DNA from: Eledone cirrhosa
Taxonomy: Eukaryota
NCBI GenBank assembly: GCA_964016885.1
Contig: OZ024751.1
Location: 43,834,001 to 43,898,000 of the forward strand
Direction of reading: 5' to 3'
Length of the DNA: 64,000 nt
In this document: one piece after another, positions 10,961 to 56,200 of the stretch
How positions within the stretch are numbered: the stretch's first letter is position 1
Layout of the letters: the number at the start of each line of letters is the position of its first letter
Made by a program: the position numbers and the translations under genes
The notes under the pieces: model-generated
What the model saw: only the letters and a program-made list of their open reading frames with translations
The model's database searches: none
Told to the model about the DNA's origin: nothing

Positions 10961-11220
10961 CATATATATATATATATATATATATATATATATATATATA
11001 TATATATATATATATATATATATAGAAAAGCTTCTACAGGGCTGTAGAAGCTTTTCTATATTAAAACATATACTCTGCTATGTATTGAGTACTGTTATGT
11101 ATTGAGTTACTGTGGTTACCCCCGATTCAACCCGGAATAACTTATATATATATATATTCATTTTATTAAGGCTGAATAGTGAGTCTTGTTTCTCTGGAGT
11201 TTCGCCTGTTTATTACATGT

Positions 11221-11268
11221 CTTGTTTGGTGACCCTATCATAAACAGGTGAAACTCCTGAGTAACAAG
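11221..11268 (+). ncRNA. Degenerate hammerhead in inverted repeat 11160-11292
   Basis: CTTGT-TTGGTGA-CCCT...AGGT-GAAA-CTC-CT-GAG-TA-ACAAG; stems I and III intact, core mutated. Confidence 0.5.
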
Positions 11269-11390
11269 TCTCACTATTCAACCTTAATAAAAGGAATATT
11301 AAAACTCTACTTCGGTATTGAGTACTCATTTCTCTCAGCCGTCAACTGCATACGGATCTCCCTCTCTCTCTCTCTCTATATATATATATA

Positions 11391-50200: not shown

Positions 50201-53200
50201 AAAGGATGACAAATAAAACAAAACAAAGTAATATATTACCTAGTATATTTCGACATGATATTTCGGAGCTAATACCCTCTTTTCAAATGTTGAAACGGAA
50301 ATGGTTCAAAACAAAAACGAACGATCGATGTGTCCTTCCCTAACTGGACAACGTGGTCTGAAATACGCATGCGTGGAGCTTCATACATCTCTAATCTCTT
50401 ATATATTCCCAAAAGGACCTAATCATTTGGCCAATAAAGAACAACAACAACATCAGAAAAAACAAAAAATATCAATATGTCCAAGCCACTTACGTTCACC
50501 AAGTCACTTATCATGGAAAACTGTGTCATCCACTCAAGTTTAATGTTGTCATTGAATATAATGTCCTGTAGATAGATAAATAGATAGATAAATATATAGG
50601 TACACAGATAGATAGATCGATAGATAGATAGGTAGGTAGGTAGATAGATAAACAGAGAAGGAGGGAGGGAGAAGGACAATCATCAGTGAAGTTGTAACAG
50701 ATATATCGAGACATTAGTTTCTATCCATACCACACCAGGAGTCTCTCATTTTTGAGAAACTTGGCGAAAGAAATGCTGTTACCATTGATATCATCCAGAC
50801 TATCGACAATGTCTGGAATGTAAACTTAAACAGGCAACATAGCAGCCGTTTGGTGATAGCCCGTCTGTTACTTTCTCCAATTTACCGCCAAGAAAAGAAA
50901 CGTCAAAGTTATATGTCTCACCTGTAAACTACCTTTGGAACAGTAGTTGGTTATGATAGCACAGAGCTTCTCACTGAGGCACAACCCGAGAAATTTGTTG
51001 ATATTTTCGTGGTGCATCTCATAGACCTGGAACAAAACCAGAGAGGTCAGTAATTTGTGTTCGATCTCATAGATAAATAGATAGATATACTGACAGATAT
51101 AGATAGATAAATAAATAGATAGACAGGCAGATAAATAGATAAAGTAGGCAGATAGATATGTTTCTTTATTAGCCACAGGGGCACAAAAGAAGGGGACAAA
51201 TACAAAGAGGGAAGTTTACATACAATAAAAACGTGTAAAATATTATTACAAATGCAATTTAAAAATTAATCGATTTTCCCCAATAGGGGGAGACATTTCA
51301 TATGGGTAACACATACCCCAGAAAAAAAAATATAGATGAATAGACAAACAGACAGAAATAGATAGATAGACAGATAGATAGATAGATAGACAGATAGATA
51401 GATAGATAGATAGATAGATAGTAAATAGATAGTTATAGATAGTCAGGCAAGTAGATAGATAATTTTTTTTTTATTTGCCACCAGGGCATCAAAAAGTGGG
51501 ACAAGTACAATGGGGCGAGTTTACATAACAAGGCGTCCTCAACAGACGGATAAATAGATAGACTGACAGATATTTATACCAAGAATTAATCTGTTTACCA
51601 TTTTCAGTTCCAATTGTTTGTCTCTGTTTAAAATGATGCTGTTTTTCTTTAATTCTTGCAGACCTATTTTCGTTTCATTTAAGAATGCGAACCTTGTGAA
51701 TATCTCATCAGTGACAGAAATCGTGTTGGTCGTCATGGACATCTGCCCAGTAAAGAAACAAGCAGAAACATAAATTTACCTGTATGTATATCTATCTATC
51801 TATAAAGAAGTTATATGGTGGACGAGGTTGAGAGGACTGAGGACAGATGCCTTTCTCTCCGGACAACAATTGATTCCCTTCTTTAAGTATCACTTTAGAA
51901 GGAGAATCAGGGTGGAGAGAGAGGCACTGCGCCCCAGTAAATTTACTGAAAGGTGGGTGAATGAAGCGAAAATGGCCCGAGTGATTGGGCCTTCTCTGTT
52001 TATAAGCCTGTAGGTTGAGGAAGAGAGCAAAAGGAAGAAAGGAGCACTTGCACAACACGCTCCTCGAGTTGAGGGTTGTTCTATCGACGGGGTATTAAAC
52101 AACCCATTTGTGGCGCCTCCCCCCTATTGGGGATTTCGATTGTTGAAATTGTTTGTTTTTATATTTTTTACACGACTATATGTAAAATCCCCGGCATGTC
52201 TTTGTATTGTCCCCTTTCTTGTTGCGCCCTTGTGGCTAATAAAGAAATCTATCTATAAAGATATAGATACACCTCGCTACTGACGTGAACCTAAACATTG
52301 CGTGCTCGACTGGATGAACCTACAGTACCTTCACGTTACACTCCCTAGATATAGATATATAGATATACATATGTTCCTTCTTTCTCACACCGCACTCACG
52401 GCGTACGGTCTGCTTCTCTGACCGCTCATGAAATTCACCCGGATTATGCTGATCGGATAACTACCATGTGGCTTGCTGTTTTCCAACCTTCGGTTTGCTT
52501 TTCCTTCTGTTGTTTACTTGTCTCACTCGCTGTTGTTTACTTGTCCCAATAGCTTATTTTAGTTCTTGCTCGCACCAACCTGAGGTATCTGATTTTTAAT
52601 GCGATGAAATACCAATGATTGTTGGCAAAATCACTGATGAGGGACTAATTTTATAATATGTAATCCATGTGCAACCATAAAGTATTCTTCTTCCCCTTGT
52701 TTTTCATATATATATATATATATATATATATATATATATAAAAGAATAGAGGTGTAACACACAAGTTATTATATATTGGTAAACGGAATAGAAAATGCTG
52801 ACAAATTGTTCACAGTTGAAAAATGGTTTAATTAGGAATAAAAGAGTATTAGTGATTGTATGGGTTAGTATTCAGTTGTGGTTTTAAGTTTTTAAGTTTT
52901 TACCGGTTGCGCATTTCTAAATGCTTTTCAAAAATAATTTTGAGATAGAGTGTCCGTGCTGTTTGCTCAGATCAGAGCAAACAGCACGGACACTCTATCT
53001 CAAAATTATTATCTCTTCTTGCTCACATCTCACTCACGTCGGACGGTCTGTATCTTGATCGCTCATGAAATCCACCCAGCTTATGCCGACCGGATAACCA
53101 TGTTGCTTGTTTATTCCCATCTTTGCGTTGCTTTCATCCTTCTATGTTGTTTACTTGTCTCACTCGCTTTACCCGATTTACTTGTCCCAATAGCTTTTTT

Positions 53201-56200
53201 TAGCTATTGCTCGCACCAACCTGAGGTATATGATTTTTAATGCGATGGAATATCAATGATGGTTGGCAAATCACTGACGAAGGACTAATTTTATCATATG
53301 TAACCCATGTGCAACCACGCAGTATTCTTCTTTCTTCTCATGTTTTATATATATATATATATATATATATATATATATATATACAGGTATATATAACGAA
53401 GGAAGTGTGGTAAGGAACCAGGTGGACCATAACTCACCAGAGTACTCGATACTTAGAGTAGTAGAGTGGGTAATAGAAAAAAGAGTCAGGACCCCGACGG
53501 CTGAGCTCCGGCCGTTTCGATAGCTAGACCTGAACGGTTCAGGTGGTCTAGCTATCGAAACGGCCGGAGCTCAGCCGTCGGGGTCCTGACTCTTTTCCTA
53601 TATATATATATATATATATATACAAATATAAATTAGCGAGAATCGTATTTCAGCTCAGGAATTAACGAAAAACAACTTCCGAGATGTGTGGCAAGCGCTC
53701 GCTCGATGATTTATATGAATCAGAGCTACAACATACGTTAAAGGCCAAACACACTGAGACGATGGTTAAACCAATCATCCGCACAGCCAAAAAATCGACC
53801 AAGTAATTCGGGTCAAACAATAAAAATATATGTGATTGTATATATGTCCCAAGGCTCTGATACAATCAACACAATGAACACCATAAACACAGAGCTGGCA
53901 TATCTAAGAACTGACTAACTGCCTGATGAGGTCATAGCCACTCAATGGCTATCATCGAAATATATATAGCAATAAATAAAGGATTATGAGTTCATGCAAT
54001 TGACTTATGTTTCGTCACTATAAATATATATATAATATATACATACTCCCATATATATATATATATATATATATATATATATTGATAGATAGATAGATAG
54101 ATAGATAGATAGATAGATAGATAGATAGAGAGAGAGAGAGAGAGGGAGAGGGAGAGAGAGAGATAGATAGAGAGAGGGAGAGGGAGAGAGAGAGAGAGAG
54201 AGAGAGATATGAGACGATTCAAATAACTTTACTTACCAGACTACGCATAGAGAAGTTACTGGTAGGTTTTGTGTCACTAAACCTTAAACTTTCATAACTT
54301 ATTATCCATGGCATTTCCTGCAGCTTTCGCTCCAAATTAAATTTTCTTCAGAAAGTAAGGATAAATACAGACAAGATAGATAAAAATTGCTGAACACTCC
54401 ATACAGCGTACAACAACTCAATATCTAATTTATTTCGTGTCAGAAGCAAAGTTAAAGCAGTAATAAGTTCCCACAAAGACACAGCACACAAAGGCCAAAC
54501 ATCTTTGGTGAGGGATAGAGGGATATTGTCCATTAACTGGAACCCCAGTATTTGGCTGGGGTTTTATATTTTATCTAGTCCGGAATGATAAAATGTGAAG
54601 TTGACCTCGTGGTGTTGGGTTGAACAACTGTGTATGGATCTGGGCCACAGCATTATACAATCACCACAGTGACCCTCACTTTTAACAGTGTCGATTATGG
54701 ACCATTGTCACGTGACACTCAGATGAAAGATTGATTGTCTCAGCAAGAAGCAATATCTGACAGAAGAAGGAAGCGCGGAGGATGTTTGATCAAGGCTGCA
54801 TTTATTGGAGGGTGGGGACAGAGTGGGCGAATGTCCTGGGCACCCCCTTGTCAAACAGAGCCTCCTCTAGGAACAACCATGGGCGTCCCCAAACCTGAAC
54901 TACCCCAGGCCACCCCAAGGTCTAAAATATGGCCCTGGATTTGGATAAGCTTTAATGGAATGAAGACAAAACCACTCACCTGCGCAGGTAGAATGCTACA
55001 GGAGCGATGATAACTATCAGTAATGTTGGTATCATGATCAAAAGCATCTCTAGTACTGCACAACAGAAATAAATGTGTCATATATAGAAGACAGTCCTCA
55101 CTTGACGTCGATGATAGGTTCTTGGAAAATGAAATTACGTCAAGTGAAACGGCGTTAAGTGAAACGACGTTAAGTGAAACGACGTTAAAATGAATTTACG
55201 CAAAAGGGAAATCACGTTAAGTGATCTTACGTTAAGTGAAATTACGTTAAGTGAACTTACGTTAAGTGATCTTACGTTAAGTGAAATTACGTTAAAGTGA
55301 ATTTACGAAAAAAGGGAAATCACGTTTAGTGAAATCACGTTAAGTGAAACTACTTTAAGTGAACTTACGTTAAATGAACTTACGTTAAGTGAAATTACGT
55401 TAAGTGAAATTACGTTAAATTAACTTACGTTAAGTGAAATTACGTTAAGTGGACTTACGTTAAGTGAAACTACGTTAAGTGAACTTACGTTAAATGAACT
55501 TACGTTAAGTGAACTTACGTTAAATGAACTTACGTTAAGTGAAATTACGTTAAGTGAAATTACGTTAAATGAACTTACGTTAAGTGAAATTACGTTAAGT
55601 GGACTTACGTTAAGTGAAACTACGTTAAGTGAACTTACGTTAAGTGAACTTACGTTAAATGAATTAACGTTAAGTGAAATTACGTTAAGTGAAATTACGT
55701 TAAATGAACTTACGTTAAGTGAAATTACGTTAAGTGGACTTACGTTAAGTGAAACTACGTTAAGTGAACTTACGTTAAATGAACTTACGTTAAGTGAACT
55801 TACGTTAAATGAACTTACGTTAAGTGAAATTACGTTAAGTGAAATTACGTTAAATGAACTTACGTTAAGTGAAATTACGTTAAGTGGACTTACGTTAAGT
55901 GAAACTACGTTAAGTGATCTTACGTTAAATGAACTTACGTTAAGTGAAATTACGTTAAATGAACTTACGTTAAGTGAAACTACGTTAAGTGAACTTACGT
56001 TAAATGAACTTACGTTAAGTGAAATTACGTTAAGTGAAATTACGTTAAAGTGAAACGACGTAAATGTGAACTTACGTTAAGTGAAACAAATTTTTACCGA
56101 AGAATCAATGATATAAACGAGTACGTTTCACAGTATATCCGTTGGATATGGAACATTGAAATATACATGTTCAATACATGCATTTAATAAAGATTAATAA

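Follow-up and report, generated by a model that had tools for sequence, protein, structure and literature searches.

Why does a small bulged hairpin recur behind hammerhead ribozymes in repeat families that are otherwise dissimilar, and what is it for? The question is raised by a 64,000-nt stretch of the Eledone cirrhosa genome (assembly GCA_964016885.1, contig OZ024751.1, positions 43,834,001 to 43,898,000 of the forward strand), here called the window, which is animal DNA rich in AT and microsatellites from a 3.0-Gb assembly. A sequence-only reading of the window had listed the hairpin at eight sites and called it an orphan. It is instead paired with a second hairpin in a twin motif that belongs to Hydra-clade Penelope-like elements (PLEs), and the ends of inserted copies fall beside the two. 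We regard it as practically certain that this is a real, conserved RNA motif. From sequence comparison we further consider it probable that the hairpins are the start-site signal of Hydra-clade reverse transcriptases (RTs), that is, a docking site predicted to position the enzyme on its RNA. The elements, their hammerheads, their tails and their inverted copies are already known; the twin hairpin and the link of one hairpin to each insertion end appear to be new.

Conservation of the twin hairpin

The motif is built as RCUC, stem, loop, a UY or UA bulge, GAGY and ACU. Its lower stem, its 2-nt 3' bulge and the 3' ACU are invariant, the upper stem covaries, the loop is free, and UA is enriched at 5-8 nt upstream. 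In the pseudo-long terminal repeat (pLTR) of the element the order is hammerhead, first hairpin (hp1), second hairpin (hp2) and ATG. The second hairpin is of the same build and lies just beyond the insertion end in tandem copies, 78 nt after hp1 in the family that we call A, 87 nt in family X and 65 nt in family B.

When re-reading the sequence we found the hairpin at all eight reported sites with unchanged coordinates, and its distances from the predicted cleavage site also hold, with 25 nt in family A (11511), 40 nt in family B (11304) and 27 nt in family C (42154). Both halves of the ribozyme core, however, are intact at 42154 only (one of the eight). At 11304 the 5' core is mutated, four family A copies retain the 3' half only, and no core half is left at 11072 and 5370. 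The hairpin at 18291 carries a C-to-T change in the upper stem, giving a U.G pair, which had not been flagged. In the window these elements are present only as short, mostly palindromic stubs in (TA)n. Overlooked so far were hp2, which is absent from the short copies in the window, a satellite of 59 units of 33 bp, five family members and one weak match.

A genome-wide collection of matches and a covariance model had been suggested as checks, and both bear out the motif. The pattern ACTCTAC-N3-10-GTATTGAGT has 57,354 exact matches in the genome against 7 for a reversed-pattern control. A G.U variant of the arms adds 18,567 matches and a compensatory TGC/GCA variant 1,194, the latter including distinct families, so that the three arm variants together have more than 75,000. 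The covariance model (R2), whose training set included four window sites, recovers all eight reported sites and adds five window sites that are not part of the satellite, as well as one weak match. The sequences around the hairpin are not shared in the same way. Between 10 families (one copy each, 45 pairs) the 30-nt flanks are 0.43 and 0.35 identical, compared to 0.38 after shuffling, while the arms are 0.94 identical, a value that is partly due to selection because the families were found by the arm pattern. Flanks that align equally well between families had been named as the mark of simple common descent, and here they are at shuffle level with the arms kept.

For an independent view of the motif we turned to relatives at 77 marine metagenome loci (encoded proteins 35-43% identical). 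They contain 37 complete hammerhead-to-ATG junctions, selected on the hammerhead, of which 26 are distinct after removal of similar ones. All 26 have at least one GCTC...GAGC hairpin; 20 have two and six have one, 46 in all, compared to a mean of 1.3 and a maximum of 5 in dinucleotide shuffles of the same junctions. The presence of the hairpin in these junctions is not a circular result, because the descriptor was derived from the source genome. A reverse-strand control of the scan is uninformative, since the pattern is self-complementary. The bulge is TT in 29, TC in 9, TA in 6 and other in 2 of the 46 hairpins, and ACT follows in 42. Start-to-start spacing of the two hairpins is 55-83 nt, and hp2 precedes the ATG by 15-42 nt in 20 junctions. 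The ORFs (open reading frames) of the distinct junctions are 40-81% identical to each other, with a median of 48% (23 of 26 measurable).

Covariation in the upper stem is pronounced. Pair 1 is Watson-Crick in 44 of 45 distinct hairpins (shuffle mean 24.1), pair 2 in 32 of 45 (13.5) and pair 3 in 24 of 39 (10.3), each reached in 0 of 2000 shuffles, in a test whose anchors are set by sequence alone and whose shuffles ignore relatedness. With bulge registers of 0, 1 or 3 there is no signal at these three pairs in the 45 hairpins. A count made with an alignment tool gives 61 cells changed on both sides against 20.6 in shuffles; it places short hairpins in gap cells (15-25 of 60 set aside at the upper pairs), its figure of 98% is optimistic, and the anchored test is the fairer one. 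The earlier suggestion of selection on RNA structure is thus supported by covariation across independent lineages and within this genome, together with flanks that cannot be aligned.

The hairpin had not been recognised as a described motif, and this largely holds. Rfam has no family for it: on the window the best 150 of 271 matches are below threshold and reflect repeats or palindromes, none of them representing a family for this hairpin, and the Rfam 15 covariance models gave two chance snoRNA matches only on 20 of the 77 metagenome loci. Full-text literature searches likewise gave no description of the twin hairpin or its link to the ends, and the passages on the Hydra clade in one paper mention no hairpin (PMC8557442). 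Nevertheless, the motif can be made out by eye in several published Hydra consensus sequences, namely Hydra-2_Amil, Hydra-1_Ajap (both hairpins) and Hydra-2_Ajap, and it is degenerate in Hydra-1_Crog and Hydra-1_Obim (consensus sequences seen in part of PMC8557442). A search of the Naiad and Chlamys consensus text with four 9-mers gave three incidental matches, a weak negative because line breaks can split the motif. A telomeric meaning of the CCCTAA loop was considered and rejected, as this loop occurs in one subfamily group only and loops are free.

The carrier element and the ends of its copies

In long family A copies the upstream sequence is an ORF for an RT and endonuclease (EN), which is 718 aa long when intact, and intact copies follow each other in tandem about every 3.54 kb. 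The protein has YRDD at 348 (RT) and YIG at 606 (a C-terminal GIY-YIG-type EN), as well as DKT at 117, RWR at 37 (with R for the K of the RWK-type motif), CxCX5C at 572, CxxC at 670 and CxH at 698; it has no GxK[FY], and no CCHH is seen in the EN stretch. Its N-terminal helical region, with the conserved residues R35, R37 and W38, is a candidate surface for hairpin binding. A Pfam scan of the family A protein gave no match, and its predicted structure (predicted local distance difference test, pLDDT, 89) has TERT as its best Foldseek match. By the motifs DKT, RWR, CxCX5C, CxxC and CxH, with named references compared by eye, the carrier is assigned to the Hydra clade of PLEs. An assignment to Neptune/Nematis was rejected, as there is no CX2-5CxxC match and no CCHH is seen; the motif comparison favours Hydra.

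The published passages on the Hydra clade (PMC8557442) agree with our element in RW[K/R], DKT, CxCX5C, CxxC, CxH and the lack of CCHH, and also in the pLTR hammerhead, the (TA)n targets and the tandem and inverted insertions. They differ from it in that family A is about 3.5 kb long and has a U3-A8 core, and in that the first pair of hp1 is A-U in most families here and not the usual G-C. The length of the family A repeat unit (about 3.54 kb) is owed to a long 3' untranslated region (UTR); the clade is generally below 3 kb, which is a tendency and not diagnostic. Hammerhead cores are canonical in families C and B and of the U3-A8 variant in family A, a type that has been described (PMC4209133, in the part seen), and copies are flanked by (TA)n. 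At locus L062 (minus strand) the family A hammerhead lies 125-25 nt upstream of hp1 and combines the U3-A8 core with a long stem III and a large loop II. At the same locus the hp1 5' arm can pair over 9 bp with the hp2 3' arm, a possible alternative fold.

Family C also precedes a related ORF, 40-52% identical to that of A. The ORF of family X is 52-54% identical to A, and its hairpin has G-C in place of A-U at pair 1. A search of the genome for family B linked no ORF to it. Further Hydra-like ORF families, 32-48% identical to A, are found at L126:3285-5010, L127:2587-4767, L226 and L237. A coding role of hp1 was rejected, since loop lengths of 3, 4 and 8 do not preserve the frame and 141 nt separate hp1 from the first ATG downstream.

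It has been open so far how PLEs choose their start sites, why copies are inverted and why a tail is found at one end only. Three accounts are given in parts of the literature, invoking antisense self-priming (PMC3846280), endonuclease resolution (PMC8557442) or two internal RT starts (PMC11167929). Our alignments show where the ends lie. In family A, 106 of 146 alignments end in (TA)n, 49 of them just before hp1, 54 before hp2 and three elsewhere. Each junction lies inside a TAT common to element and target, 5-8 nt upstream of hp1 or 3-6 nt upstream of hp2. Counted genome-wide from one anchor, 32,480 family A arms stop before hp1 (tail-less) and 31,863 run on into it. Head-to-head family A neighbours at most 300 bp apart consist of one arm of each kind in 43 of 44 cases, where 22 mixed pairs would be expected if the arms were independent; the remaining pair has two tail-less arms and none has two tails. 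These 44 pairs are among the matches listed in the first 19.5 Mb of one contig (100 and 95 rows). Another count covers 46 inverted pairs in fetched loci that had been chosen for their end or hairpin patterns; 37 of these pairs are mixed, one is tail-less twice and eight have an unclassified arm. Compared at their 5' ends, the 37 mixed insertions comprise 12 in which the tail-less arm extends further, 10 in which the tailed arm does, and 15 in which the two lie within 3 nt of each other. Arms that bear the ORF end both ways. Locus L126 ends 35 nt after a canonical hammerhead, like a tail-less end.

The same pattern is seen outside this genome. After 21 of 42 downstream pLTRs had matched a full junction and five at contig ends had been dropped, 11 of 16 metagenome ends lie within -5 to +1 of a hairpin, seven at hp1 and four at hp2. 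A TA is found within -9 to -3 of 40 of the 46 metagenome hairpins, with a peak at -6, compared to 18 and 22 in control windows. Of six published Hydra consensus sequences judged by eye, in the part of the source seen, three end before hp1 and three about 30 nt after hp1.

The 5' ends of short arms are also clustered. In family A, 57 of 112 lie at -70 to -60 from hp1 and 30 at -67 to -65, the cluster coinciding with an initiator-like TTAGTC that is preceded, 29 nt upstream, by a TATA-like stretch; in family C, 12 of 25 lie at -73 to -68, with TATAAATA at -102. Initiator-like and TATA-like are used here after the promoter consensus motifs. We infer from these sequences that the clusters may reflect run-off at a transcription start inside the pLTR, at about -66 (family A) and -72 (family C) from hp1, so that the 5' UTR hairpins would give rise to the stubs, the alternative being stalling at a structure. 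The putative start sits in loop II of the family A hammerhead, so that the 5' copy in the transcript would be half a ribozyme.

Some loci show more complex rearrangements. A threefold repeat of the 84-nt hp1-to-hp2 unit at L261 resembles the window satellite, and the copy at 11072 has a partial duplication; repeated template jumps at hairpins, or DNA slippage, could lie behind all three. One chimera joins upstream family C sequence to a family A tail at the hairpin (L119:1400-1600), and another continues from a family C hp1 into an inverted family B hp1 (L105:1400-1600). A third has an inversion within the tail (L073:1424-1659). These chimeras suggest template switching or cross-family recognition at hp1.

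Features of the window

Hairpins and the insertions that carry them are collected in the table below.

Table. Hairpins of the twin motif and associated insertions in the window
Feature	Position	Strand	Remarks
hp1, family A	11511..11534	+	inside palindromic insertion 11390-11585, with hp1 and tail on the right arm and the left arm ending ~5 nt short of hp1
Family A head-to-head pLTR stub in (TA)n	11390..11585	+	hammerhead 3' half at 11463-11485
hp1, family A	16705..16728	-	inside insertion 16654-16823
hp1, family A, U.G in upper stem	18291..18314	+	inside insertion 18164-18365
hp1, family A, UC bulge	53444..53467	-	inside insertion 53393-53599
hp1, family B	11304..11323	+	inside insertion 11154-11357; degenerate hammerhead 11221-11268
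hp1, family C	42154..42172	+	inside insertion 42025-42217; complete hammerhead core 42088-42126
hp1, family C, G.U variant	11072..11090	+	inside insertion 11023-11145; 3' arm partly duplicated
Decayed hp1, family C	5370..5389	+	tail reaches 5421
Family C start, then satellite of 59 x 33 bp (39000-40948)	38979..40948	+	hp1 in each unit; 36 exact copies
hp1, family X (GCUC/GAGC, long loop)	21459..21504	+	overlooked earlier
hp1, family X	46703..46748	+	overlooked earlier
Hairpin GCUC/GAGC, UA bulge	43596..43616	+	further palindromic stub family
Hairpin, compensatory upper stem, UA bulge	42317..42341	-	further palindromic stub family
Decayed hairpin 3' of hammerhead-like core	58233..58258	-	E 0.09
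Weak match to hairpin model, upper stem well paired	53701-53726	-	E 0.77
Family A palindrome, both arms stopping before hp1	18019..18139	.	exception to the one-of-each rule

The window also holds other features. Two ORFs encode non-LTR reverse transcriptases (Pfam RVT_1; 8645-10564 on the plus and 22111-24549 on the minus strand), the second of which also matches a PHD finger. An open frame at 14469-15479 (+) matches the ZIP zinc transporter family (E 4e-57) and is likely a host exon or retrocopy. A different hammerhead-core family is found at 57793-57823 (+) and 56916-56946 (-), with no such hairpin nearby and a long palindrome at about 57100-57450. Unrelated satellites occupy 28396-31898, 33410-37597, 55130-56086 and 15561-16175, with units of 72/144, 52, 15 and 45 bp.

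Proposed function of the hairpins and known systems

The sequence-only reading had raised the possibility of a recognition signal for the mobilising RT. This idea gains indirect support and becomes more precise, as both insertion ends map to hairpins. A hairpin that fixes an end is not copied at that end, and it is therefore most simply read on the template before copying. We suggest the following course of events. The element protein, possibly as a dimer, would bind both hairpins on the sense RNA, and the EN would open both strands of a (TA)n target. Each target 3' end would pair with the UA upstream of one hairpin and prime cDNA synthesis, so that two primings would take place on opposite target strands and the two cDNAs would be joined head to head. 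Priming at hp2 would give an arm with hp1 and the spacer, the 'tail', and priming at hp1 an arm without it. In the common palindromes of about 200 bp both cDNAs would run off the RNA 5' end at the transcription start within the pLTR. The biochemistry reported for PAc, from a sister clade, offers a precedent: in the part of that study seen, AT-rich DNA is cut on both strands by the purified protein, which also extends both, two internal RT starts on the sense RNA bound the tail, and RNA 3' of the start is needed (PMC11167929).

Several observations weigh against a start-site signal. Isolated hp1 folds weakly (-2.4 to -4.5 kcal/mol), the bulged form is the minimum free energy (MFE) structure in two of six window copies, and over 270 nt of family A the MFE structure has hp1 and hp2 paired to each other. 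Evidence on which strand folds is weak, as the excess of G.U over A.C (18,567 vs 686) stems largely from one expanded subfamily and metagenome stems have 5 vs 2. In family C two patterns found no canonical hp2, only a reduced 4-bp hairpin after the tail end; the family nevertheless has more than 18,000 copies, with the tail-less end falling about 12 nt ahead of hp1 rather than 5. The hp2 of family B was found once, in a family with no linked ORF. Some insertions carry two tail-less arms, and five of the 16 metagenome ends do not fit (three cross-family matches, one early end and one family without recognisable hp2). Compared with other clades, where the tail is 30-40 bp according to the part of the PAc study seen (PMC11167929), the spacing here is longer, at 55-87 nt (78 in A), and the stem-loop shown there for the PAc start has no such motif by eye.

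Among other explanations, it is conceivable, but in our view rather unlikely, that the hairpins set the ends later or on the other strand, either as stop or boundary marks on an antisense template or as endonuclease-resolution signals of fold-back cDNA. Parts of earlier work ascribe the head-to-head palindromes to self-priming on an antisense template (PMC3846280) and the tail to EN-mediated resolution (PMC8557442). Sense and antisense folds are indeed similar in energy, and many arms stop at nearly one 5' point (15 of 37 within 3 nt). However, hp2 is never in the tail-bearing cDNA and yet marks its end, and in 12 of 37 insertions it is the tail-less arm that extends further 5', an outcome not available to simple fold-back copying but compatible with a boundary role. 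Stems moreover tolerate G.U rather than A.C (one main event), and the tail ends of PAc are RT start sites on sense RNA, as far as that study was seen (PMC11167929).

The positional link also bears on the idea that the hairpins are regulatory sites of the 5' UTR (for translational autoregulation, packaging, export or as a promoter), with ends set by UA and geometry where the protein is already bound for a different purpose. The offset from end to hairpin is fixed across lineages with different spacers, which is a direct link, and covariation speaks against a double-stranded DNA promoter motif. We judge this explanation improbable. In its favour, the putative transcription start precedes and the ATG follows both hairpins, a reduced hp2 did not keep family C from transposing widely, and D. 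virilis Penelope has regulatory sequence in its 34-bp repeat region (PMC2377424, in the part seen).

It appears very improbable that the hairpin serves the hammerhead ribozyme as a cofactor or, as the sequence-only reading proposed, as a tertiary partner. Such a role would suit the poor cleavage of PLE hammerheads alone (PMC4209133, in the part seen) and the constant position of hp1 after the hammerhead in the 26 junctions, which were themselves selected on the hammerhead. But the distance from cut to hairpin varies from 25 to 60 nt, a second copy follows 55-83 nt further on, half of all copies end before hp1, and the hairpin interior has no family-specific Watson-Crick complementarity (4.4 nt to its own and 4.3 nt to other hammerheads). 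Simple common descent, in which the hairpin would be under no selection, can hardly be maintained: all families appear to stem from one clade and the reported sites show no compensatory change, but it is refuted by flanks at shuffle level beside conserved arms and by compensatory changes across proteins with a median identity of 48%.

A small covarying RNA motif exactly beyond both ends makes the start-site question directly testable by few point changes. The motif can also serve as a marker to find and bound Hydra-type elements and their non-coding derivatives, and it offers access, through RNA, to the enzymes most closely related to telomerase.

A start-site signal of this kind can be compared with other systems. 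PAc/Poseidon shares with it two starts that bound an optional tail, an AT-rich target, cutting and extension of both strands and the requirement for RNA 3' of the start; it differs in that no duplicated conserved signal was identified and the start lies in an AC-rich stem-loop inside the ORF, and how the two starts are matched to both ends of a single insertion is not quantified in the text seen (all PMC11167929). As a tentative extension, with the chances in our estimate slightly below even, we propose a programmed twin priming, in which the two hairpins would load two RTs on one RNA and priming on opposite strands of a double-strand cut would yield the tail, the inverted pLTR and the run-off stubs. 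In the twin priming of L1, a second priming takes place at a variable internal site and the copied parts do not overlap. Both cases would have two primings from two target strands leading to an inverted insertion, whereas here RNA structure would set both starts and the overlapping arms form a palindrome. Stem-loops recognised by RTs are known from the stringent LINE 3' stem-loop (eel UnaL2), the R2 3' UTR, the hepadnavirus epsilon and the template boundary element of telomerase. In these, as is proposed here, a small protein-bound RNA structure sets the start or end of copying, with a bulged stem and invariant bases. The likeness meant is one of role, and in contrast to them the signal here is duplicated, lies outside the part copied from it and marks opposite insertion ends with its two copies. 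If the proposal is true, the tail, the inverted pLTR and palindromic stubs in their tens of thousands all come from one device, and the hairpin plus UA would form a portable signal of 30 nt at which an enzyme sister to telomerase starts copying, a counterpart to the alignment and boundary elements of telomerase.

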